Assembly (NCBI RefSeq): GCF_009931435.1
Contig: NZ_CP043414.1
Direction: 5' to 3' (one strand)
DNA: 64,000 nt
Source: Escherichia coli
GTDB lineage: Bacteria > Pseudomonadota > Gammaproteobacteria > Enterobacterales > Enterobacteriaceae
This document shows, one piece after another, positions 12,921-25,110 of the stretch (positions within the stretch are counted from its first letter, which is position 1; each line of letters opens with the position of its first letter). Both the position numbers and the translations under genes were made by a program. Below the pieces are notes generated by a model. The model was not told the DNA's origin. It saw only the letters and a list, made by a program, of their open reading frames with translations, and made no database searches.

Positions 12921-13655
12921 ATGTCCAAACTCGATCTAAATGCCCTGAACGAACTGCCGAAGGTAGATCGCATTCTGGCGCTGGCGGAAACTAACGCCGA
13001 GCTTGAAAAACTGGATGCTGAAGGCCGTGTTGCCTGGGCGCTGGATAATCTGCCCGGTGAATATGTGCTTTCTTCCAGCTTCGGTATCCAGGCGGCGGTT
13101 AGTCTGCATCTGGTGAATCAGATTCGCCCGGATATTCCGGTGATCCTCACCGATACCGGTTATCTGTTTCCGGAAACCTACCGCTTTATTGACGAGTTAA
13201 CGGACAAACTCAAGCTCAACCTGAAAGTGTACCGCGCTACCGAAAGCGCCGCCTGGCAGGAAGCACGCTACGGCAAACTGTGGGAGCAGGGCGTTGAAGG
13301 CATTGAAAAGTACAACGATATCAACAAAGTCGAACCGATGAACCGGGCGCTGAAAGAACTGAACGCACAAACGTGGTTTGCTGGCCTGCGCCGTGAACAA
13401 TCCGGCAGCCGCGCTAATTTACCGGTGTTGGCAATTCAGCGTGGCGTATTTAAAGTGCTGCCGATTATCGACTGGGATAACCGAACTATTTATCAGTATC
13501 TGCAAAAACATGGCCTGAAATATCACCCATTATGGGACGAAGGATATTTATCGGTTGGTGATACCCATACAACCCGTAAATGGGAACCTGGTATGGCGGA
13601 AGAAGAAACGCGTTTCTTTGGCTTAAAAAGGGAATGTGGGCTGCACGAAGGGTAA
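12921..13655 (+). CDS. cysH: Phosphoadenosine phosphosulfate (PAPS) reductase (244 aa)
   Basis: ORF-track frame 12759..13655 runs through the REP element; start taken at ATG 12921 ([15 protein letters not shown]...) behind GAGGAA. Confidence 0.95.
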
Positions 13656-13672
13656 ATATTGCCGGATAAAAT

Positions 13673-13710
13673 AAACGCCTCTGTCAGAAATGATGGGGGC
13701 GTTTTTATTT
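13673..13710 (+). terminator. Candidate intrinsic terminator after cysH
   Basis: aaacgcc...ggcgttt stem followed by tttattttg. The loop is long, so confidence is modest. Confidence 0.4.
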
Positions 13711-13918
13711 TGCGAGCCGCATTCCGGCATTTAAACATGAATATAGCAGGGGAAATCAACAGTTATAGAATGGCGTCGGGTGCTTGAGGCTGTCTGGCGT
13801 TGAGCATTCGCGAGGTTCCAGATGGACAAAAGCCCCGGGCGATATTTCTATCAACCTGAGGCTCGCGTTCGAACGTAGCAATTCGAATGTTAGTCTCTTC
13901 TTTGCAGGGAGGCAAGAC

Positions 13919-14071
13919 ATGCTGACAAAATATGCCCTTGTGGCAATCATCGTACTGTGTTGTACAGTACTGGGATTCACGCTGATGGTAGGCGACTCGT
14001 TGTGTGAGTTGAGTATCAGAGAACGTGGTATGGAGTTTAAGGCAGTTCTCGCTTACGAACCGAAGAAGTAG
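13919..14071 (+). CDS. Hok/Gef-family type I toxin (50 aa, HokE-like); likely the hok of a hokX/sokX-type locus
   Basis: [50 protein letters not shown] has a single TM helix and the Hok signature SLCE...AYE. GGGAGG sits 6 nt before the ATG. Confidence 0.7.
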
Positions 14072-14076
14072 CCACC

Positions 14077-14098
14077 ACGCGGGGGTAAAACCCCGCGT
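14077..14098 (+). other. GC-rich stem-loop at the 3-prime end of the hok transcript
   Basis: acgcgggg gtaaaa ccccgcgt, an 8-bp perfect stem immediately after the hok stop. Confidence 0.4.
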
Positions 14099-14109
14099 AT
14101 TGAATTGTG

Positions 14110-14309
14110 ATGGTTTGGTCTCCTGCACCCTTTTTTTCATTTATATTGTTTTTGTGAATATTATGCCTGTGTTTATTATTTATATATATCACAGATGAAA
14201 ATCATTGAATTATTCATAATGTAAATATTTTATTGAACGATATATATCACAGATAATTTTTAATATATGCGTAAATATCCTTTAAGTTTTACTGAAGGAT
14301 AAAAACATT
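14110..14309 (+). promoter_or_regulatory. AT-rich cas3 upstream region with a tandem direct repeat
   Basis: About 200 bp of very AT-rich sequence; atatatatcacagat occurs twice about 60 bp apart (near 14182 and 14242). Confidence 0.35.
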
Positions 14310-16967
14310 GTGACTTTCTTTGATTTCTGGGGAAAAACCCGACGTGGCGAGAAAGAGGGTGGCGACGATTATCACCTTCTTTGCTGGCATTCGCTGGATG
14401 TAGCCGCGATAGGCTATTTAATGGTCAAAAACAACTGTTTCGGGCTGGCTGACTATTTTCGTCAATTAGGTTTCGCTGACACGGATCAGGCAGCACAATT
14501 TTTCGCCTGGTTGTTGTGCTGGCACGATACTGGAAAATTTGCCCGCTCATTTCAGCAACTTTACCTGCACCCACAACTCAAGGTTCCGGAAGGCGCAAGA
14601 AAGAATTACGAAAAGATCTCTCATTCAACGCTGGGTTACTGGTTGTGGCATCATTATTTAATTGAATGTGAAGAGTTGCTTCCTTCATCTTCACTCTCTT
14701 TGCGCAAACTTAAACGAGTAATAGATATGTGGATGCCCGTGACGACCGGGCATCATGGTCGGCCTCCTGACCGTATCGATGAACTGGACAACTTTCTGCC
14801 TGAAGACAAAGCTGCCGCACGGGATTTTCTCCTTGAAATCAAGGTACTGTTTCCGCTCATCGAGATCCCTACATTCTGGGATGATGACGAGGGCGTTGAA
14901 CTTATAAAACATTTTTCCTGGTATATCTCTGCAACCGTCGTACTCGCAGACTGGACGGGATCGTCAACGCGGTTTTTTCCACGCGTTGCACAGGCAATGG
15001 ATATTAAAGATTACTGGCAGAAGGCTTTAGTTCAGGCTCAAAACGCATTAACCGTCTTTCCCCCAAAAGCAGAAAGCGCGCCTTTCACTGGAATTAATAC
15101 GCTGTTTCCTTTTATTGAGAACCCAACACCGTTACAGCAAAAGGTGTTGGATCTGGATATCAGCCAGCCAGGACCACAGTTGTTTATTCTGGAAGATGTG
15201 ACTGGCGCAGGTAAAACAGAAGCGGCGCTTATCCTGGCGCACAGGTTGATGTCTGCGGGGAAAGCACAGGGTTTGTTTTTTGGCCTGCCAACAATGGCAA
15301 CGGCCAATGCCATGTACGATAGGCTGGTAAAAACCTGGCTTGCTTTCTATTCGCCACAATCCCGCCCCAGCCTGGTGCTGGCACACAGCGCTCGTTCGCT
15401 AATGGATCGCTTTAACGCATCGCTGTGGTCTGGTGATTTTGTGGGGTCAGAAGAACCGGATGAACAAGCGTTCAGTCAGGGATGTGCGGCCTGGTTTGCT
15501 GACAGTAACAAGAAGGCGTTGCTGGCTGAAATTGGCGTCGGCACGCTGGATCAGGCGATGATGGCGGTGATGCCGTTCAAACATAATAATCTGCGGCTTC
15601 TGGGGCTGAGTAACAAAATCCTGCTAGCCGATGAGATCCACGCCTGTGACGCTTATATGTCGTGCATTCTTGAAGGGCTGATCGAGCGGCAGGCGCGTGG
15701 CGGAAACAGCGTTATTTTGCTTTCTGCTACGTTGTCTCAACAGCAGCGTGACAAACTCGTCGCCGCCTTTGCGCGTGGTGCAGAGGGCCAGCAAGAAGCT
15801 CCGTTGCTGGAAAAAGATGATTATCCCTGGCTGACGCATGTCACGAAATCCGATGTGCATTCGCACCGGGTAGCGACGCGCAAAGACGTTGAGCGCAGCG
15901 TGAGTGTGGGTTGGCTTCATAGCGAACAAGAGTGTATTGCGCGTATCGAATCGGCGGTAAGTCAGGGGAAATGCATCGCCTGGATTCGGAATTCTGTCGA
16001 TGACGCCATCCAGGTTCATCGTCAGCTGCTTGCCCGCGGCGTCATTCCTGCTTCCAGCCTTTCACTTTTTCATAGCCGCTTTGCTTTCAGCGATCGCCAG
16101 CGAATTGAAACGGAGACGCTGGCACGCTTTGGTAAAGAAGACTGTTCACAGCGTGCCGGAAAAGTCCTCATTTGTACTCAGGTCCTGGAGCAGAGCGTCG
16201 ACTGCGACCTGGACGAAATGATTTCCGACCTTGCCCCTGTTGATTTACTGATCCAGCGAGCAGGGCGATTACAGCGACATATCCGCGATATTAATGGTCA
16301 GTTAAAGCGTGACGGTAAAGACGAGCGTCACCCTCCTGTATTGCTGATTCTGGCCCCCGTCTGGAACGACTCTCCGGGTGAAGAATGGTTTGGCTGTGCC
16401 ATGCGTAACAGTGCATTTGTCTATCCCGATCATGGGCGAATCTGGTTGACGCAGCGTGTGCTGCGTGAACAAGGCGCGATTCAGATGCCACACTCAGCCC
16501 GGCTTCTGATTGAATCAGTCTACGGTGAGGACGTGGTAATGCCGGAAGGGTTTGCCCGCAGCGAGCAGGAGCAAGTGGGCAAATACTACTGCGATCGTTC
16601 AATGGCTAATAAGTTTGTGCTGAACTTCAGGCCCGGCTATGCCGCCAATATCAACGATTACCTCCCGGAAAAACTGTCGACACGTCTGGCTGAAGAGTCT
16701 GTTTCCCTGTGGCTGGCTAGCTGTATTGGCGGTGTGGTGAAGCCTTATGCCACCGGTGCACACGCATGGGAAATGAGCGTTGTCAGAGTGCGCCAAAGCT
16801 GGTGGAAAAAACATCGGGATAAGTTTTCTTTACTGGAAGGGGATGCGTTCAGGCAGTGGTGCGTTGAACAGCGGCAAGATCCGGAGATGGCAAACGTGAT
16901 TTTGGTCACCGATGACGAAAGTTGTGGATATTCGGCTACGGAGGGATTGATTGGCAAGGTTGGTTGA
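14310..16967 (+). CDS. cas3: Type I-E CRISPR-associated nuclease/helicase Cas3 (885 aa)
   Basis: ORF track 14310..16967 (GTG start). HD motifs (LLCWHSLDVAA, WHDTGKF), Walker A (GAGKTEAAL) and DExH (DEIH) present. N-terminus resembles Salmonella-type Cas3 rather than K-12 YgcB (from memory). Confidence 0.9.
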   Translation: MTFFDFWGKTRRGEKEGGDDYHLLCWHSLDVAAIGYLMVKNNCFGLADYFRQLGFADTDQAAQFFAWLLCWHDTGKFARSFQQLYLHPQLKVPEGARKNYEKISHSTLGYWLWHHYLIECEELLPSSSLSLRKLKRVIDMWMPVTTGHHGRPPDRIDELDNFLPEDKAAARDFLLEIKVLFPLIEIPTFWDDDEGVELIKHFSWYISATVVLADWTGSSTRFFPRVAQAMDIKDYWQKALVQAQNALTVFPPKAESAPFTGINTLFPFIENPTPLQQKVLDLDISQPGPQLFILEDVTGAGKTEAALILAHRLMSAGKAQGLFFGLPTMATANAMYDRLVKTWLAFYSPQSRPSLVLAHSARSLMDRFNASLWSGDFVGSEEPDEQAFSQGCAAWFADSNKKALLAEIGVGTLDQAMMAVMPFKHNNLRLLGLSNKILLADEIHACDAYMSCILEGLIERQARGGNSVILLSATLSQQQRDKLVAAFARGAEGQQEAPLLEKDDYPWLTHVTKSDVHSHRVATRKDVERSVSVGWLHSEQECIARIESAVSQGKCIAWIRNSVDDAIQVHRQLLARGVIPASSLSLFHSRFAFSDRQRIETETLARFGKEDCSQRAGKVLICTQVLEQSVDCDLDEMISDLAPVDLLIQRAGRLQRHIRDINGQLKRDGKDERHPPVLLILAPVWNDSPGEEWFGCAMRNSAFVYPDHGRIWLTQRVLREQGAIQMPHSARLLIESVYGEDVVMPEGFARSEQEQVGKYYCDRSMANKFVLNFRPGYAANINDYLPEKLSTRLAEESVSLWLASCIGGVVKPYATGAHAWEMSVVRVRQSWWKKHRDKFSLLEGDAFRQWCVEQRQDPEMANVILVTDDESCGYSATEGLIGKVG

Positions 16968-17063
16968 TATGCCTGCGACAGGATTCTCTGAATAGTTGAT
17001 ACACAAAAAAGGATGGAAGGATGGATAACCGACCTGGGATGGTCTTTTTACGAGAGGATGCGT

Positions 17064-18626
17064 ATGAACTCGTTTTCACTTCTGACAACCCCGTGGTTGC
17101 CCGTTCGTTATAAAGACGGAACGACAGGCAAACTGGCGCCAGTCGATCTGGCGGATGAAAATGTTGTCGATATCGCTGCGCCGCGGGCAGATCTCCAGGG
17201 TGCGGCATGGCAGTTTTTGCTGGGACTACTACAAACCAGCTTCGCGCCCAAAAATCACGGTCGTTGGGATGATATATGGGAAGACGGACTGGAAGCTGAA
17301 AAGCTAAGGGAAGCATTGCTGTCTTTAGAACATGCTTTCCAGTTTGGCCCAGATTCCCCTTCATTTATGCAGGATTTCGAGGCGCTTACGGGAGATAAAG
17401 TTCCTGTCGCTTCGTTACTGCCTGAAATTCCCGGCGCTCAAACAACGAAGTTCAATAAAGACCACTTTATTAAGCGTGGCGTGACTGAACACATATGCCC
17501 TCATTGTTCCGCGTTAGCGCTGTTTTCCCTACAGTTAAATGCGCCGTCAGGCGGCAAAGGCTATCGCACCGGTTTGCGCGGCGGTGGGCCAATGACGACG
17601 CTGATTGAATTACAGGAATATCAGGGCAATCAACAAACACCCTTGTGGCGCAAACTGTGGCTCAACGTGATGCCGCAGGATGAATCTGACTTACCGCTAC
17701 CCAAAAAATTTGGCGATCTGGTTTTCCCCTGGCTTGGCCCGACGCGTACCAGTGAACTGGCCGGTGCGGTGGTAACTGATGATCAGGTCAACAAACTCCA
17801 GGCGTACTGGGGAATGCCTCGGCGCATACGTGTTGATTTTAATACCACGACAGTCGGCAACTGCGATATTTGCGGTGAGCAGAGCGACGCGCTCCTGAGC
17901 CTGATGACGACCAAAAATTACGGTGCGAATTATGCCATGTGGCAGCATCCCTTAACGCCCTACCGTATACCACTTAAAGAGGGCGGCGAGCTTTACTCGG
18001 TTAAACCACAACCGGGCGGTTTAATCTGGCGCGACTGGCTAGGACTTATCGAAACGGGTAAGTCAGAAAACAATACGGAACTTCCCGCGCTGGTGGTGAA
18101 ACTCTTTAATGCCAGCAGTCTGAAACAGGCAAAAGTGGGCCTGTGGGGATTTGGCTATGATTTCGACAACATGAAAGCGCGCTGTTGGTACGAACACCAT
18201 TTCCCGCTACTGCTCAATAAAAAAGAAGGCCAGATACCAAAGCTGCGGCTGGCTGCGCAAACGGCTTCACGGATTCTAAGTCTGTTACGGAGTGCATTGA
18301 AAGAAGCATGGTTCTCCGATCCAAAAGGTGCACGGGGTGATTTCAGTTTTGTGGATATCGACTTCTGGAACAAAACTCAGCATCGCTTCCTGAGGTTAGT
18401 GCGTCAAATTGAAGAAGGTCAGGAGCCGGATGAATTACTCAGCAAATGGCAAAAGGAAATGTGGTTATTCGCGCGTCAGGATTTTGACGAGCGGGTATTC
18501 ACTAATCCTTATGAGCCCGTTGATTTGAAACGCGTCATGACCGCGCGCAAGAAATATTTTACAACATCGGCGGAGAAGCAAAGTGCTAAAGCCGCCAGGG
18601 AGAAAAAGCAGGAGGCTGCTGAATGA
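17064..18626 (+). CDS. casA: Type I-E Cascade large subunit Cse1/CasA
   Basis: ORF-track frame 17013..18626; start taken at ATG 17064 (MNSFSLLTTPWLPV...) with GAGG 6 nt upstream. ATG 17058 is an alternative. Confidence 0.8.
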   Translation: MNSFSLLTTPWLPVRYKDGTTGKLAPVDLADENVVDIAAPRADLQGAAWQFLLGLLQTSFAPKNHGRWDDIWEDGLEAEKLREALLSLEHAFQFGPDSPSFMQDFEALTGDKVPVASLLPEIPGAQTTKFNKDHFIKRGVTEHICPHCSALALFSLQLNAPSGGKGYRTGLRGGGPMTTLIELQEYQGNQQTPLWRKLWLNVMPQDESDLPLPKKFGDLVFPWLGPTRTSELAGAVVTDDQVNKLQAYWGMPRRIRVDFNTTTVGNCDICGEQSDALLSLMTTKNYGANYAMWQHPLTPYRIPLKEGGELYSVKPQPGGLIWRDWLGLIETGKSENNTELPALVVKLFNASSLKQAKVGLWGFGYDFDNMKARCWYEHHFPLLLNKKEGQIPKLRLAAQTASRILSLLRSALKEAWFSDPKGARGDFSFVDIDFWNKTQHRFLRLVRQIEEGQEPDELLSKWQKEMWLFARQDFDERVFTNPYEPVDLKRVMTARKKYFTTSAEKQSAKAAREKKQEAAE

Positions 18627-19159
18627 GTATTGTAAAAGAGGAGCACAAAGCCACGCTGCGCAAATGGCACGAGGAATTGCAGGAAAAACGCGGCAATCGT
18701 GCCAGTCTGCGGCGTAGTACGACGGTTAATGATGTTTGTTTGTCAGAAGGGTTTCGTTCTCTGCTGATGCAGACCCACACGTTGTGGAAAGTTGAAGCGC
18801 AAGAGTGGCGTTTTACCGCACTGGCACTGGTCGCTGCAGTTAGCGCCAATGTAAAAGCCATTGATGAACGGCAGCCTTTTGCCGCGCAGCTGGCGGCAGT
18901 AATGTCAGAAGGGCGGTTTTCGCGCCTGTCGGCAGTAAAAACGCCGGATGATTTACTGCGCCAGTTACGTCGCGCGGTCAAATTATTAAACGGTTCCGTC
19001 AATCTTATCTCTTTGGCAGACGATATTTTCCGCTGGTGCCAGGAGAGTGACGACCTGCTCAACCATCACCGCCGTCAGCAGCGGCCAACAGAATTTATCC
19101 GTATCCGCTGGGCGCTGGAATATTACCAGGCTGGCGACGCCGATAACGAACAAAATTAA
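18623..19159 (+). CDS. casB: Type I-E Cascade small subunit Cse2/CasB
   Basis: ORF track; start overlaps the casA stop (ATGA) behind AGGAGG. Confidence 0.85.
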   Translation: MSIVKEEHKATLRKWHEELQEKRGNRASLRRSTTVNDVCLSEGFRSLLMQTHTLWKVEAQEWRFTALALVAAVSANVKAIDERQPFAAQLAAVMSEGRFSRLSAVKTPDDLLRQLRRAVKLLNGSVNLISLADDIFRWCQESDDLLNHHRRQQRPTEFIRIRWALEYYQAGDADNEQN

Positions 19160-19173
19160 TAAAGGACTATCTC

Positions 19174-20229
19174 ATGACGACATTTATTCAGCTCCATTTG
19201 TTAACCGCTTACCCTGCAGCCAACCTTAACCGTGATGACACCGGTGCGCCGAAAACCGTGGTGCTGGGTGGAGCAACGCGTCTGCGCGTTTCCTCGCAAA
19301 GTCTGAAACGTGCGTGGCGCACTTCTGCACTTTTTGAACAGGCGCTGGCGGGCCATATTGGTATTCGTAGTGGGCGTATCGCGCGCGAGGCAGCAACTAT
19401 CATGATTGAGAAAGGAATCGAAGAAAAAAAAGCCATCGAATGGGCGGCAGATATTGCCGATTATCTTGGTAAAGCCAAAAAAGACAAAAAAACAAAAGAT
19501 CCGCTCACTAACGCTGAAACTGAACAGCTCGTCCATATCAGCCCTGCAGAATTTGACGCCGTAAAAGCGCTGGCCCATCAACTGGCAGAAGAAAAGCGCG
19601 CGCCAAAAGAGGACGATCTCGCTTTGTTACGTAAAGATCGTATGGCGGTAGATATCGCCATGTTTGGTCGTATGCTGGCGAATAAACCCGAGTTTAATGT
19701 TGAAGCCGCCTGTCAGGTCGCGCACGCGTTTGGTGTCAGTGAAACGATTGTCGAAGATGATTTTTTCACCGCCGTTGATGATTTGCGCCAGGCCTCTGAA
19801 GATGCTGGTGCAGGGCATCTTGGTGAAACTGGGTTTGGTTCTGCGCTGTTCTACACCTATATCTGCATTGATAAAGATCTGCTGGTCGAAAACCTCGGCG
19901 GTGACGAAGCATTAGCTAATCAGACCCTGCGCGCCTTTACGGAAGCAGCGTTTAAAGTTTCCCCAACCGGTAAACAAAACAGCTTTGCCAGCCGTGCCTA
20001 CGCCTCCTGGGCGCTGGCAGAAAAAGGCACCGAACAACCGCGTTCTCTGGCGGCGGCTTTCTATGAACCCATTAATGGCACACGTCAGTTAGATGTGGCA
20101 GTGCAGCGTATTACAACGCTTCGCGAAAACATGAATACGGTTTACGAACAGAAGACCGAATGCGCAAGTTTTGACGTGATGAACAAACAGGGAAGCATGA
20201 AGGACGTGCTGGACTTTATCTGCGCGTAA
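19174..20229 (+). CDS. casC: Type I-E Cascade backbone subunit Cas7e/CasC
   Basis: ORF track; 351 aa with N-terminal ...AANLNRDDTG... typical of Cas7e. Confidence 0.9.
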   Translation: MTTFIQLHLLTAYPAANLNRDDTGAPKTVVLGGATRLRVSSQSLKRAWRTSALFEQALAGHIGIRSGRIAREAATIMIEKGIEEKKAIEWAADIADYLGKAKKDKKTKDPLTNAETEQLVHISPAEFDAVKALAHQLAEEKRAPKEDDLALLRKDRMAVDIAMFGRMLANKPEFNVEAACQVAHAFGVSETIVEDDFFTAVDDLRQASEDAGAGHLGETGFGSALFYTYICIDKDLLVENLGGDEALANQTLRAFTEAAFKVSPTGKQNSFASRAYASWALAEKGTEQPRSLAAAFYEPINGTRQLDVAVQRITTLRENMNTVYEQKTECASFDVMNKQGSMKDVLDFICA

Positions 20230-20239
20230 GGGGCGGCTT

Positions 20240-20986
20240 ATGAGCCAATATCTGATTTTTCAGCTTCATGGGCCAATGGCATCCTGGGGCGTTGATGCAC
20301 CCGGTGAGGTGCGTCATACCCATGAACTGCCTTCGCGTTCAGCATTGCTGGGGCTGCTGGCTGCCGGGTTAGGGATACGGCGTGATGACACCGAATGCTT
20401 AAACGCGTTTAATCGCCACTATTCACTGGTGGTTTGCGCCAGCCGTAACCCGCGCTGGGCACGGGATTATCACACGGTCCAGATGCCAAAAGAGGTGCGT
20501 AAAGCGCGTTATTTCAGCCGTCGCGAAGAGTTGAGCGACCCTGATCTTCTAAGCGCGATTATCTCCCGGCGCGACTACTACACCGATGCCTGGTGGATGG
20601 TGGCCGTGGCAACAACAGCTGATGCGCCTTACAGCCTCGAACAGTTGCAGGAAGGTTTACGCCATCCGGTTTTTCCGCTTTATCTGGGGCGAAAAAGCCA
20701 TCCGCTGGCGTTACCCCTTGCGCCGTTACTGCTCGAAGGCAACGCGTCTGATGCCTTACGTACCGCATATCAACAGTATCAGGATCGTTTCCACGAACTA
20801 AAAGTCTCACTCCCGAAACTTCAGGATGAATGCTGGTGGGAAGGGGAACACGACGGCCTGGTCGCGAGCAAAATATTACGCCGCCGGGATGTTCCTTTAA
20901 ATCGTCAGCAGTGGCTGTTTGGGGAACGCACTGTCAATCAGGGGCCGTGGCTCAGCAAGGAGGAACCATGTACCTCTCAAGAATAA
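20240..20986 (+). CDS. casD: Type I-E Cascade subunit Cas5e/CasD
   Basis: ORF track; ...LHGPMASWG...SALLGLLAAGLGIRRDD... matches the Cas5e pattern. Confidence 0.85.
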   Translation: MSQYLIFQLHGPMASWGVDAPGEVRHTHELPSRSALLGLLAAGLGIRRDDTECLNAFNRHYSLVVCASRNPRWARDYHTVQMPKEVRKARYFSRREELSDPDLLSAIISRRDYYTDAWWMVAVATTADAPYSLEQLQEGLRHPVFPLYLGRKSHPLALPLAPLLLEGNASDALRTAYQQYQDRFHELKVSLPKLQDECWWEGEHDGLVASKILRRRDVPLNRQQWLFGERTVNQGPWLSKEEPCTSQE

Positions 20987-21614
20987 CCTTACATACCGGC
21001 CAGCTTTCCCCAGCGCAGTTGCTGCATCTGGTGGATCGCGGTGAATATGTGATGCATCAGTGGCTGTGGGATCTTTTCCCTGGCGGCAAAGAAAGGCAAT
21101 TTCTTTATCGTCGGGAAGAACTCCAGGGCGCGTTTCGCTTTTTTGTCCTGTCGCAGGAACGCCCGGCGGAAAGTGAAACGTTCACCATCGAATGCCGGTC
21201 ATTTGCGCCGGAGCTGCGTACCGGACAATCCCTTTTTTTCAACCTGCGAGCGAATCCAACAGTCTGTAAAGCGGGTAAGCGCCACGATCTGCTGATGGAG
21301 GCGAAACGGCAGGTGAGGGGGCAGGCGGAAGGAAGTGATGTCTGGTTGCATCAACAACAGGCGGCGCTGGGCTGGCTGGCTGCGCAGGGAGAGAGAAGTG
21401 GTTTTACACTGCTGGATACCTCGGTCGATGCCTACCGACAACAGCAACTGCGGCGGGAAAATGCCCGGCAACTGATCCAGTTCAGTAGCGTGGATTATAC
21501 GGGGATGCTGACGGTCACCGAGCCAGGGTTATTTCTGCAACGTCTCTGCCTGGGGTATGGCAAAAGCCGGGCGTTCGGCTGTGGTCTGATGTTAATCAAA
21601 CCCGGAGCAGAGGC

Positions 21615-21618
<4 letters not shown>
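20968..21618 (+). CDS. casE: CRISPR repeat endoribonuclease Cas6e/CasE (216 aa)
   Basis: ORF-track frame 20830..21618; start taken at ATG 20968 (MYLSRITL...) behind AAGGAGG, overlapping the casD 3-prime end. C-terminal GKSRAFGCGLM motif. Confidence 0.85.
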
Positions 21619-22828
<1,210 letters not shown>

Positions 22829-22924: not shown

Positions 22925-24051
22925 GTGTTCCCCGCGCCAGCGGGGATAAACCGTGGATTATGACGCCAGAGAGCTTCCTGTTTGCGTGTTCCCCGCGCCA
23001 GCGGGGATAAACCGCTGGCTAATAACATCCCACTGAATATTATTTCGTGTTCCCCGCGCCAGCGGGGATAAACCGAGGTGTGGCATGCGGGGAATTATGA
23101 TCCGGTAGTGTTCCCCGCGCCAGCGGGGATAAACCGTGACAACGGCCGGCCGCTCTTTTTGCGGTCATGTGTTCCCCGCGCCAGCGGGGATAAACCGATC
23201 ATCGGCATCATCTCGTGATACTCATCCGGCGTGTTCCCCGCGCCAGCGGGGATAAACCGCCCAGGCTTTACGTGAGCTGGCGGATGTGGCCGTGTTCCCC
23301 GCGCCAGCGGGGATAAACCATACGGTCAAGCGATATCAGGGGTACTGTGTCGTGTTCCCCGCGCCAGCGGGGATAAACCGGGCGCCGCATCTTTATCGTA
23401 AAGCATGTAAAGGTGTTCCCCGCGCCAGCGGGGATAAACCGACCGCTCACACCCAGACAAGCGCCACTAACGTGTGTTCCCCGCGCCAGCGGGGATAAAC
23501 CGAACGCCGCATCAGCTAAATACGCTAAAAAAATGTGTTCCCCGCGCCAGCGGGGATAAACCGCGGCTGATACTCAGGAGCAGGCCAGAGAGCGTGTGTT
23601 CCCCGCGCCAGCGGGGATAAACCGTACCACCTGTGTATTGAGTTACGTCGCCGGGGGTGTTCCCCGCGCCAGCGGGGATAAACCGGAGCTTCATCGGTGG
23701 TTCTGGGAGCAACGGGAGTGTTCCCCGCGCCAGCGGGGATAAACCGGCACAAGTGACTACATCAAGGATGGGGAATGGGTGTTCCCCGCGCCAGCGGGGA
23801 TAAACCGATTAACATTGCAATTGAATTGACGCGTATGAGGTGTTCCCCGCGCCAGCGGGGATAAACCGCAGGCAGCACGGCGGGTTTTGCCCGGATATTT
23901 GTGTTCCCCGCGCCAGCGGGGATAAACCGCAAAACCAATAGGTGCTTTCCACATTGCAGAAGTGTTCCCCGCGCCAGCGGGGATAAACCGCTCTCGGTTC
24001 TGGGGTACTGTTACCCATAACTGAGCTCCCCCGCGTCAGCGGGGGAACTCC
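22925..24051 (+). CRISPR. Type I-E CRISPR array: 19 repeats (18 canonical plus one degenerate terminal repeat), 18 spacers
   Basis: 29-nt repeat gtgttccccgcgccagcggggataaaccg at a 61-nt period from 22925; spacers 31-33 nt. Terminal repeat gagctcccccgcgtcagcgggggaactcc is degenerate; one internal repeat near 23292 ends in A instead of G. Confidence 0.95.
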
Positions 24052-24072: not shown

Positions 24073-25110
24073 TCATGACGCCTTCACCAGCTCCTTCACC
24101 AGCGGTAGCATTATCCGCATAACGTCACGGCAGCGACGTTCTATTCTTCCAGGAAGCGCCTTATCAATATGCTGTTGATTATCAAGCCTTACATCATGCC
24201 AGCTATTTCCCGCCGGGAAGGCCGGTGTTTTTGCGCGTTGCTGATAACCATCCTTATTTCCAAGATTCCAGTTGGTCGCCTCCACCGAAAGTACCGCAAT
24301 ACCGGCTTTGTCGAAAACTTCTGCATCATTACAACACCCGGTGCCTTTCGGATAGTTTTTATTCAAACCTGGATTTGTTGTCGCTGCAATCCCATGATTA
24401 CGCGCAATTGCCAGCGCTCGATCACGGGTTAATTTCCTGACAGCCTCTGGTGTATTTACACCACTATTAAAATACAATTTATCGCCAACAATTAAGTTAT
24501 CGAGATTAATCACCAGCAGCGTATTTTTCTTTTCGGTGTCACTCATCCGTTTGAGTAAATTCTCAGCGCCTAATTTTCCTTCCTCTTCGCCGCTGGTCGC
24601 CACAAATCGAATACCATACTCGGTAGGCGTATTTTTCAGGCGTTCAGCCAGTTCCAGCATGACACCTAAACCTGCGGCGTTATCATCCATTCCTTGTAAC
24701 GTTAGCCCGCCGAGATTGGCATCGGCGTCAGCATCGCTCAGCGGGGCGTAAGTATCCAGATGCGCCATAATGATGATCTGCTGCGGCGCTTTGCCTTCAT
24801 GAGCGGCAATCACCGTACTTCCCGTCACGTTATGCCAGCTCTTGCGATTATCGCGGGCGGTGTAAATATATCGGCTATTAAATGTCCGAATATCACTGCG
24901 ATAACCCATCTGTTGAAACTGTTGGCGAATATAATCGGCAGATAACATTTCTGCAGGAGTTCCGGTCATGCGTCCCGGAAAGAAAGTAGCAATATGTCGT
25001 GCCTGTGTATTAGCAAAATCACCAGGTTTAGGTGACGAGGCGTGTACGGGGAGAATAAAGCATACGCCGAGCGCCAGGGCAGCGGTACGGTGGCGCAATG
25101 CGGAAAACAT
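24073..25110 (-). CDS. iap: Alkaline phosphatase isozyme conversion aminopeptidase
   Basis: ORF track; 345 aa with N-terminal signal peptide (MFSALRHRTAALALGVCFILPVHA) and M28-peptidase-like body. Confidence 0.9.
   Translation of the reverse strand: MFSALRHRTAALALGVCFILPVHASSPKPGDFANTQARHIATFFPGRMTGTPAEMLSADYIRQQFQQMGYRSDIRTFNSRYIYTARDNRKSWHNVTGSTVIAAHEGKAPQQIIIMAHLDTYAPLSDADADANLGGLTLQGMDDNAAGLGVMLELAERLKNTPTEYGIRFVATSGEEEGKLGAENLLKRMSDTEKKNTLLVINLDNLIVGDKLYFNSGVNTPEAVRKLTRDRALAIARNHGIAATTNPGLNKNYPKGTGCCNDAEVFDKAGIAVLSVEATNWNLGNKDGYQQRAKTPAFPAGNSWHDVRLDNQQHIDKALPGRIERRCRDVMRIMLPLVKELVKAS

Follow-up and report, generated by a model that had tools for sequence, protein, structure and literature searches.

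In this Escherichia coli strain, the DNA between cysH and cas3 very probably carries hokX/sokX, a chromosomal type I toxin-antitoxin module of the species, in complete form (Table 1). In the window (the whole 64,000-nt stretch analysed here), cysH ends at 13655 and cas3, with its HD and helicase domains, occupies 14310-16967. The position of the hok gene, directly downstream of cysH and upstream of cas3/iap, is also annotated in RefSeq genomes, and hokX/sokX is the literature name for the cysH-linked locus (PMC12736100, PMC7232551). The same site holds the locus known as 'hok-5' in NRG857c and as hokX in E. coli B, and most E. coli genomes match the mRNA over its full length at a nucleotide identity of at least 95%. 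Identity is 95-99% over 361 nt in 4,206 genomes, and the leader is collinear with K-12 sokX (b4701, NC_000913.3 2887353-2887411). The Rfam model RF01794 matches 13778-13934 with 103 bits (gathering score 59); this score and the identity of at least 95% shared with annotated loci in several thousand E. coli genomes put the region far beyond chance. This analysis established the open reading frame and its family, the conserved complementarities within the RNA, the identity to annotated loci and orthology to K-12 sokX. Sub-threshold Rfam matches were set aside as chance or terminator-like: ctRNA_p42d at 13671-13713 is the cysH terminator, and Guanidine-I, at 19.7 bits, fell short of its gathering score of 63. 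The intergenic region is only 90-95% identical to most E. coli, which raised the question of another species as the source, but cysJI is 98.2% identical to E. coli and places the DNA in E. coli or a lineage very near it.

Table 1. Features of the hokX/sokX locus, in window coordinates
Feature	Position	Strand	Remarks
Putative hok promoter, -35 ATAGCA	13743-13748	+	Weak; with the -10 would put the transcription start at ~13778
Putative hok promoter, -10 TAGAAT	13766-13771	+	Aligns with TATAAT of K-12 hokC; Rfam model starts 7 nt downstream
Full-length hokX mRNA, ~360 nt	13778-14137	+	Predicted 5' end from the RF01794 match, 3' end from fbi and U7
tac element GGGUGCUUGAGGCU	13778-13791	+	Would pair with fbi in full-length RNA, with ucb after 3' trimming
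SokX antisense RNA, ~58 nt	13822-13879	-	K-12 sokX transferred by alignment; ends in this strain putative
ucb AAGCCCC	13830-13836	+	Closed form: with the SD-like box (hairpin 13831-13863); open form: with tac
Hairpin of 'SD-mok'-like box GAGGCU (13858-13863) and dcb AGUCUC (13892-13897)	13858-13897	+	Sok target region
Only canonical-start leader ORF, 12 codons	13887-13925	+	SD-less; out of the hok frame; TGA overlaps the hok start (AUGCUGA)
Sok promoter, -35 TTGCCT (reverse complement of 13910-13915), 17-nt spacer, -10 TAACAT (reverse complement of 13887-13892)	13887-13915	-	Assigned by positional homology
hok Shine-Dalgarno GGGAGG	13907-13912	+	6 nt upstream of ATG; overlaps the opposite-strand Sok -35
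hokX coding sequence	13919-14071	+	50 aa and stop; ATG 13919, TAG 14069-14071
Tyr46 codon TAC followed by G (TACG)	14054-14057	+	TadA A-to-I editing motif (Tyr to Cys); partner of hard-coded Cys29
3' stem-loop ACGCGGGG-GUAAAA-CCCCGCGU	14077-14098	+	GC-rich, 8 bp, 6-nt loop
fbi GGUCUCCUGCACCC (14117-14130) and U7 (14131-14137)	14117-14137	+	Predicted 3' end of full-length mRNA

The toxin gene is intact. An earlier, sequence-only reading had described a 50-aa Hok/Gef-family type I toxin frame with a strong Shine-Dalgarno (SD) sequence between cysH and cas3, and in this it was right: the frame, its translation, the SD and the flanking genes all agree, and Pfam HOK_GEF (PF01848) matches residues 5-46 (E = 6.3e-10), as for the small (~50 aa) Hok/Gef membrane peptides. 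The NCBIfam Hok models also match the peptide, with scores below their curated cut-offs. When aligned with HokE, HokC, HokA, HokB and plasmid R1 Hok, HokX has all six residues that are invariant across the paralogues (C14, T16, L28, E30, E39 and A45). At the SD, GGAGGCAA is invariant in 42 related loci. In strain RMDEC465 the same protein is WP_000956457.1, and NCBI has it unchanged on 375 contigs as "Hok/Gef family protein"; it has Pro48, Ser48 being the commoner form. Expression of the frame had been proposed as a check on toxicity, and the literature has in effect supplied the answer, since 42 of 45 Hok homologues killed cells when overexpressed and a HokX variant in that panel differing only by P48S (46_982) is not among the three non-toxic ones (bioRxiv 2025.08.07.668861).

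The mRNA is likely to be longer than the gene first outlined. The interval 13784-14110 given by the earlier reading encloses the ORF, but 13784 marks the TTG at which a mechanically called 95-aa ORF opens, whereas the transcript start is likely at 13778, and 14110 falls short of fbi and the U-run behind it. Loss of homology at ~14136-14137 in strains with other downstream context sets the same 3' end. At the thresholds used, a sigma-70 consensus scan missed both the hok and the sok promoter; the hok -10 went unreported because of its poor -35. The sites that it did report in the hok coding sequence (13922-13950) and in the cas3 spacer were not used as evidence, two being found against 2.1 expected from shuffles.

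The predicted full-length RNA folds with its 5' and 3' ends joined (minimum free energy (MFE) -126.8 kcal/mol, z = -2.6), and tac is paired with fbi in the MFE structure as well as in the centroid. The truncated RNA folds into a 5' hairpin and the GAGGCU/AGUCUC hairpin. In nascent RNA, tac is predicted to form a local hairpin at 13778-13809 (-16.6 kcal/mol, z = -3.3), and the hairpin at 13858-13897 (-18.8 kcal/mol, z = -4.4) was equalled in stability by none of 200 shuffles. The order of elements is that of plasmid R1 hok/mok/sok: tac, ucb, SD box, dcb, hok SD, hok, 3' hairpin, and fbi with a U-rich end.

Conservation of these pairings was assessed in 42 HokE/X-type loci of other Enterobacteriaceae, drawn from more than 10 genera. 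RNAalifold alone, run on the 42-locus alignment, found only 2 bp of tac/fbi and proposed a helix between ucb and the coding region instead; R1-type closed and open models were then tested explicitly on the same alignment. Pairing reaches 91.9% in the closed model and 97.9% in the open one, against 33-58% when the 3' partner was slid by 1-3 columns as a control. The mutually exclusive helices are 94-100% paired: ucb/SD-box 94.2%, tac/ucb 95.2% and SD-box/dcb 100%, the last showing one pair (93/132) that covaries from A-U to G-C and compensatory changes at two inner pairs. Pairing of tac with fbi stands at 84.7%, mostly via invariant pairs, and the GCACC of fbi does not vary at all. The GC-rich 3' stem-loop, already picked out in the sequence-only reading, is 98.8% paired, with two covarying pairs at which the changes are compensatory. 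The SD/dcb, inner and 3' hairpin helices show double changes, but much of the structural support is conservation rather than covariation, since most helix pairs are invariant.

An antisense Sok had been expected somewhere within 13780-13920, and alignment to K-12 sokX, a check of the kind then suggested, places it there. Orthology with K-12 sokX points to a cis-encoded SokX with its own promoter, overlapping the hok leader. In its predicted fold the 5' tail is single-stranded and complementary to 13858-13879; then come a stem-loop and a GGGGCUUUUGU tail. The promoter is positionally homologous to the R1-type TTGCGC-17-TATCCT, and in R1 likewise the Sok -35 lies over the hok SD region and the -10 over the dcb-proximal leader. 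The promoter region (13880-13921) is identical to K-12, as is the leader, whereas everything downstream of the hok ATG has been lost in K-12. Within the -10, the T, A and final T are invariant in the 42 loci, as is GGCAA. K-12 SokX RNA has been detected in all conditions (bioRxiv 10.1101/2024.06.20.599902).

How these elements may work together can be modelled on plasmid R1, for which 3' processing and decay of hok mRNA are known; transcript ends, 3' processing, decay by RNase III, translation control, editing and toxicity in this strain are all projected from the R1 paradigm and from homologues. A weak promoter upstream of 13778 would give the hok mRNA. At full length its 5' tac would pair with the 3' fbi and the GAGGC box would be locked by the complementary box upstream, and this closed RNA would be stable, untranslated and unbound by Sok. 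Slow trimming to the 14077-14098 stem-loop, which by analogy with R1 would be the end of the processed, active mRNA, would free tac to pair with ucb, and the GAGGC box would then re-pair with dcb in the 13858-13897 hairpin. The short, unstable SokX, running from ~13879 to 13822 on the minus strand and with a promoter that overlaps the hok ribosome-binding site, would bind this open form and lead to its destruction. A drop in SokX would allow the 50-aa Hok to be made from its strong SD, to insert into the inner membrane and to depolarise the cell; full toxicity probably also requires TadA editing of Tyr46 to Cys. Unlike R1, the window locus lies on a chromosome and is not known to stabilise plasmids, and R1 Hok is only 32% identical to the HokX protein.

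Another difference from R1 concerns the mok leader frame. [quoted passage not shown] No ATG, GTG or TTG follows GAGGC at a distance of 5-12 nt in the window, which reads GTTCGAAC where relatives have G(T/A)ATGAAC, so that the mok-like frame anticipated within 13780-13920 is missing in its canonical form. An SD with ATG 7 nt further on is present at the mok position in R1, hokB, hokC and some Klebsiella and Kluyvera relatives, and 10 related loci have a canonical mok ATG at -50 or -51. The 95-aa in-frame ORF from TTG 13784 was rejected as a mok, its TTG lying in tac, 6 nt from the transcript start and with no SD. The 12-codon leader ORF is a possible but uncertain substitute. Its ATG lies inside the Sok -10 box, which is enough to account for it, and also belongs to the 3' arm of the hairpin at 13858-13897; it is missing (ATAGTA) in six related loci. 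A literature search on mokE, mokX and sokE found nothing relevant.

[quoted passage not shown] Given the lack of a canonical mok start, translation control at hokX may differ from R1, or hok may be poorly translatable. Our tentative proposal, held at rather less than even confidence, is that the HokE/HokX clade, including the window copy, has lost the canonical Mok peptide and kept every RNA switch element; gating of Hok would then differ from R1, either by direct initiation at GGGAGG after the leader refolds or by coupling to the SD-less 12-codon ORF.

The alternative is that the locus is structurally complete but translationally silent: with the mok start lost, the hok ribosome-binding site would never be opened, and the locus would be a conserved relic or have an RNA-only role through SokX and the leader. 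This fits the R1 start-codon mutants and the startless upstream frame, which is open for 45 codons in frame with hok but has no start 5-10 nt past GAGGC. K-12 keeps only the leader and sokX, from which it follows that the toxin is dispensable. Earlier work, as cited in the literature, is reported to have found that chromosomal hok loci failed killing assays, and native activity of these loci is doubtful. However, the Hok ORF, the strong SD with its 6-nt spacing, Cys29 and the TACG of Tyr46 are kept in 47 loci from many genera, most of them without a canonical mok ATG, which argues for purifying selection on a translated product. The 12-codon ORF, which ends just beyond the hok AUG, is also available, and R1 has no need of mok translation past the hok start. 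Repeated loss by IS186 and by deletion in other strains suggests that the intact form is costly, that is, active. A silent locus is unlikely.

The Tyr46 codon falls in the TadA editing motif. In TadA-edited Hok proteins, TAC lies within TACG at position 29 or 46 and a Cys is hard-coded at the other position (PMC5630033); HokX has this pattern, with Cys29 as TGT and Tyr46 as TAC followed by G. Editing at the Tyr46 position has been reported for hokC, hokD and hokE (PMC5630033, PMC12214031). Across the 47 loci the motif is TACG in 45 and TGCG, a hard-coded Cys, in the other two. The local fold places the UACG in a 9-nt loop (-7.9 kcal/mol), no more stable than shuffles. HokB, the TadA-edited persistence toxin of hokB/sokB, similarly has one periplasmic Cys hard-coded and the other as Tyr in TACG, but there the edited residue is Tyr29 and the hard-coded one Cys46, the reverse of HokX, HokC, HokD and HokE; HokB is 31% identical to HokX. 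The strict retention of an editable Tyr46 codon is a minor point that may interest specialists.

The adjacency of hokX to cas3 appears positional rather than functional. On one reading the main role of the module would be transcriptional: transcripts from the hok promoter could in theory escape the unconventional long-range terminator into cas3, coupling cas3 to hok and bypassing its silenced, AT-rich promoter. The two genes are co-oriented and 172 nt apart, the spacer is 19-28% GC, and the hok 3' end, instead of forming a local hairpin terminator, needs a partner 340 nt upstream, a terminator scan being empty there. However, the hok module also ends at ~14137 where the next element is iap or an IS and not cas3, and this shared boundary in strains without cas genes argues against a built-in link. 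In addition, K-12-type cas3 does without hok, the spacer has a promoter-like TTGTGA-16-TATTAT of its own (14152-14179), and no enrichment of hok genes is seen around defence systems (12%, with 9.4% expected). Such read-through would seem very improbable.

That the locus is hokE itself can be dismissed almost outright: K-12 hokE is ~80% identical in nucleotides, its toxin is 80% identical to HokX, its leader architecture is similar and it too has no annotated mok, but it sits between ybdK and entD, the cysH-linked copy is separately named, and E. coli genomes carry both, with a median of three matching places per genome in which the hokE matches are only ~80% identical to the query. The sequence-only label 'HokE-like' was apt in that HokE is the closest relative, but synteny makes hokX a paralogue at a locus of its own. 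The two share the lack of a canonical mok ATG, an ATG within the Sok -10, a strong GGAGG SD and TACG at Tyr46. They differ in that the leader ATG is in frame in hokE (36 nt upstream) and out of frame in hokX (32 nt), and in the tac/fbi register, which is GGUGCCU/AGGCACC in hokE against GGGUGC..GAGGCU/GGUCUC..GCACCC in hokX.

The hokX/sokX module at cysH is already known, and an intact copy is its usual state. A hok mRNA match of at least 95% nucleotide identity to loci annotated as 'Hok/Gef family protein', with cysH on one side and cas3 or iap on the other, is present in 4,146 of 5,426 complete E. coli genomes (76%). In 51% of the 5,426 the 3' UTR is uninterrupted, as in the window; in ~25% the coding sequence is present but the 3' UTR is interrupted; and 22% are in the K-12 state, with the sokX leader only and homology that stops exactly at the hok start codon. 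The insertion site of IS186/IS421 in other strains is the GGGG-N6-CCCC core of the 3' hairpin (14081-14094). The B-type hokX carries its IS in this hairpin, unlike the window, and in the one interrupted locus inspected, that of strain STB20-1, an IS186-type end lies directly 3' of ...GGGGGTAAAACC; split matches were also seen. The earlier remark that chromosomal hok loci are often inactivated does not make this copy a notable survivor, the full module being found in about half and the coding sequence in about three-quarters of complete genomes.

Since a complete copy is the common state, an intact hokX/sokX is a correct but ordinary finding. It carries low weight as a discovery, the locus being named, annotated in RefSeq and listed in surveys of the toxin-antitoxin and CRISPR regions of E. 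coli; what is added here is a base-level map of its regulatory elements in the window and the census of 5,426 genomes. The HokE/X clade as a whole is mostly without a recognisable mok start, and this bears on the generality of the mok-coupling model derived from R1.

The Hok gene between cysH and cas3 is part of the known, annotated and widespread hokX/sokX module, a chromosomal type I toxin-antitoxin locus beside cysH. Its 50-codon frame matches Pfam HOK_GEF over residues 5-46 (E = 6.3e-10) and is preceded by GGGAGG, so the Hok/Gef frame with a Shine-Dalgarno (SD) sequence seen by the sequence-only reading in the cysH-cas3 interval is confirmed, and so is the GC-rich stem-loop noted 3' of it (see table). 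The protein equals WP_000956457.1, and public databases list identical copies on 375 contigs under the name 'MULTISPECIES: Hok/Gef family protein [Enterobacteriaceae]'. Its amino-acid identity is 80% with K-12 HokE, 48% with HokA, 35% with HokC, 32% with R1-type Hok and 31% with HokB. Since hokE is located elsewhere, between ybdK and entD, 'HokE-like' is apt for the resemblance, yet the gene itself is the paralogue hokX.

Features of the hokX/sokX locus and its flanks
Feature	Coordinates	Strand	Basis or remark
cysH	end at 13655		upstream neighbour
cysH terminator	13673-13704		upstream of hok start
TAGAAT hexamer	13766-13771		7 nt before ~13778 start
SokX	~13879 to 13822	-	carried over from K-12 sokX by alignment
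Leader ORF, 12 codons	ATG 13887 to TGA 13923-13925	+	stop overlaps hok AUG (AUGCUGA)
Putative Sok promoter -10, TAACAT	reverse complement of 13887-13892	-	17-nt spacer after -35
hok SD, GGGAGG	13907-13912	+	6 nt 5' of ATG
Putative Sok promoter -35, TTGCCT	reverse complement of 13910-13915	-	positional homology with R1
hokX coding ORF, 50 codons	ATG 13919 to TAG 14069-14071	+	ORF translation
GC-rich 3' stem-loop	14077-14098	+	beyond stop codon
cas3	14310-16967	same as hok	HD and helicase models matched

The order cysH, 'Hok/Gef family protein', cas3 is also annotated by RefSeq elsewhere (megablast, 5,426 complete E. coli genomes), and where a strain has no cas genes, iap adjoins the same hok gene. 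In the cas3-cysH interval of K-12 MG1655 a small RNA, sokX (b4701), is annotated in the orientation opposite to that of the two genes; the alignment of K-12 with the window is collinear from cysH through the hok ATG, inclusive, and the sequences are unrelated beyond. Among 237 urological E. coli, 90% have hok and sokX beside cysH and the remainder sokX only, as in K-12 (PMC12736100); 'hok-5' of NRG857c, in the cysH-iap intergenic region, is described as a homologue of the hokX of E. coli B, where an insertion element has inactivated that gene (PMC7232551).

The only Rfam family above threshold in the entire 64-kb window is RF01794, at 13778-13934 on the plus strand (103 bits, gathering score 59). 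It is titled 'sok antitoxin' and covers the hok-sense leader, beginning at the transcript start and running slightly beyond the hok AUG; the annotated antisense RNA is on the other strand, K-12 sokX mapping to minus-strand 13822-13879. Annotations derived from RF01794 will therefore have the wrong strand and the wrong length for Sok. A sub-threshold ctRNA_p42d match at 13671-13713 (30 bits, gathering score 50) is a look-alike produced by the cysH intrinsic terminator, not a ctRNA.

The Rfam model and alignment with hokC, hokB, hokE and an R1-type plasmid locus place the probable hok mRNA start at about 13778 (GGGUGCUUGAGG...). The full-length RNA (13778-14138) folds at -126.8 kcal/mol (z = -2.6), and in both the MFE and centroid structures 5' GGGUGC..GAGGCU pairs with GGUCUC..GCACCC (14117-14130), which is followed by U7. 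This predicted pairing is the closure between tac and fbi, the 5' end element and the 3' fold-back element, of the R1 model (PMC9841398). The interval 13784-14110 originally given for the locus contains the ORF but deprives the functional RNA of 6 nt at its 5' end and its last ~27 nt. The leader element ucb, AAGCCCC (13830-13836), lies in a hairpin with GAGGCU (13858-13863) in the full-length fold. The open form, obtained by folding the RNA cut after the 3' hairpin, has a local 5' hairpin at 13778-13809 (-16.6 kcal/mol, z = -3.3), the equivalent of the metastable structure, and, at 13858-13897, a very stable hairpin of GAGGCU with AGUCUC, the dcb element (-18.8 kcal/mol, z = -4.4).

The antisense RNA expected within 13780-13920 is provided by SokX, which has a 5' tail complementary to hairpin 13858-13897 in its loop and 5' arm. 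Its putative promoter, TTGCCT-17-TAACAT, occupies the same relative place as TTGCGC-17-TATCCT of R1. Promoter and SD overlap, so that one invariant GGAGGCAA block serves both the SD of hok and the -35 of Sok.

With one genome scanned per species, 52 HokE/X-type loci were obtained (Escherichia, Pseudocitrobacter, Kluyvera, Citrobacter, Klebsiella, Enterobacter, Lelliottia, Kosakonia, Phytobacter, Trabulsiella, Yokenella and others), of which 42 complete ones were aligned. Across these 42, pairing is 91.9% for the closed model (tac/fbi, ucb/SD hairpin, 3' hairpin) and 97.9% for the open model (tac/ucb, SD/dcb with inner stem, 3' hairpin); sliding the 3' partners by 1-3 columns reduces it to 33-58%. 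As the majority of pairs do not vary, much of the structural support is conservation. Double changes occur at SD/dcb pair 93/132 (A-U in 34 loci, G-C in 7), at two inner-stem pairs (C-G 29, U-A 9; G-C 26, A-U 14), at two 3' hairpin pairs and in the 5' stem. The tac/fbi, ucb, SD-box, dcb and 3' hairpin elements are all present and unbroken in the window.

At least 80% of the 361-nt mRNA is present in 4,146 of the 5,426 complete genomes (76%), nearly all at 95-99% identity, and its 3'-terminal 100 nt, with the fold-back element, are unbroken in 2,770 (51%). An intact coding frame is therefore the rule at hokX, not the exception: the frame is indeed intact, but what had been presented as notable among inactivated loci is the usual state. 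The window is one of roughly half of strains with the whole module uninterrupted, while about 25% of genomes keep the coding sequence with an interrupted 3' UTR. In STB20-1, an IS421/IS186-family element starts right after ...GGGGGTAAAACC, within the 3' hairpin, and K-12 hokC and an E. albertii locus have the same IS end 3' of their hairpins. The IS186/IS421 end sequence, CATAAGCGCTAACTTAAGGGTTG, sits at the GGGG-N6-CCCC hairpin core (window equivalent 14081-14094), and insertion there splits hok from its own fbi in other strains' hokX, the E. albertii locus and K-12 hokC. Split matches of 1-54 and 43-97 in the last-100-nt search look like a 12-bp target duplication. The K-12-type junction is found in 1,175 genomes (22%); in these the upstream region of a K-12-type cas3 follows the sokX leader directly, homology ending exactly at 13919-13921. 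Since homology between the window and K-12 ends at the hok start codon, the two type I-E cas variants have their breakpoint within the hokX module.

Tyr46 has the codon TAC with G as the next base (14054-14057); the Cys at residue 29 is hard-coded. TACG is found at codon 46 in 45 of 47 HokE/X-type loci and TGCG, a hard-coded Cys, in two (Lelliottia sp., L038, and one Pseudocitrobacter locus, L058); TAT is found in none. The pattern agrees with the rule of Tyr-to-Cys editing by TadA that is reported for other Hok toxins, and HokX itself may be edited by TadA; the site would be presented by a weak local hairpin. Of 45 tested Hok homologues, 42 were toxic, and 46_982, the common E. coli HokX allele by its supplementary-table sequence, is not among the three named exceptions (bioRxiv 10.1101/2025.08.07.668861). 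That allele has Ser48, as in O157:H7 and LF82, and the window has Pro48, like HokE. A lack of toxicity, the other outcome that would have weighed against the gene, is effectively answered for this one-residue variant.

Between the co-oriented hok and cas3 genes lies a spacer of 172 nt and 19-28% GC, with a promoter-like site at 14152-14179. Two exact 15-nt direct repeats, ATATATATCACAGAT, lie 58 bp apart in this spacer (14182-14196 and 14240-14254) and could be regulator binding sites for the cas3 promoter. Some read-through from hok into cas3 is conceivable, because hok does not end in a local intrinsic terminator. A functional link between the genes is, however, disfavoured by a 3' boundary at ~14137 that is unchanged whether cas3, iap or an IS comes next, by K-12-type cas3 lacking hok altogether, and by the absence of enrichment of hok near defence systems (12% against 9.4% expected). 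Cas3 of the window is the non-K-12 variant, 885 aa long with a GTG start; its score of 421 bits falls short of the 569 bits set as NCBIfam equivalog cut-off. It is followed by a full-looking type I-E cas operon (17013-22538; ORFs of 537, 351, 248, 262 and 307 aa) and a CRISPR array (22925-23960, repeat GTGTTCCCCGCGCCAGCGGGGATAAACCG) that ends before iap (24073-25110, minus strand).

The mok leader frame expected in 13780-13920 is absent in its canonical form. In R1-type hok, hokC and hokB an ATG lies ~7 nt 3' of the GAGGC box, and in R1 mutation of the mok start codon, or stops ahead of the hok SD, abolish Hok production, mok translation past the hok start being dispensable (PMC9841398). The window counterpart, GAGGCUCGCGUUCGAAC (13864-13875 region), has no ATG, GTG or TTG; the canonical mok ATG is absent from all Escherichia hokX and hokE alleles examined, and K-12 hokE is likewise without an annotated mok. 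A minority of HokE/X-type loci, ten from Klebsiella, Kluyvera, Enterobacter and Pluralibacter (including L024, L025, L027, L032, L039, L046, L047, L049 and L055), have G(T/A/G)ATGAAC, 7 nt past GAGGC, at -50/-51, mostly in frame with hok (-51) and in some at -50, with the frame stopping at +4; the remaining loci lack it. The only canonical start in the window leader opens the 12-codon ORF, whose geometry would suit termination-reinitiation coupling; however, this ATG lacks an SD, lies within the 3' arm of hairpin 13858-13897 and coincides with the Sok -10 box. The T, A and final T of the -10 are invariant in the 42 loci while the ATG is lost in six, which have ATAGTA, so that conservation of the ATG is explained by the promoter. 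To judge from these leaders, the HokE/X clade is generally without a canonical mok start.

The identification of hokX/sokX is correct and already known; what is added here, with no further new biology, is a precise element map, a census of locus states and the absence of a mok start in the HokE/X clade. This absence bears on how Hok translation is licensed in the clade, as against the coupling model of R1 (PMC9841398).
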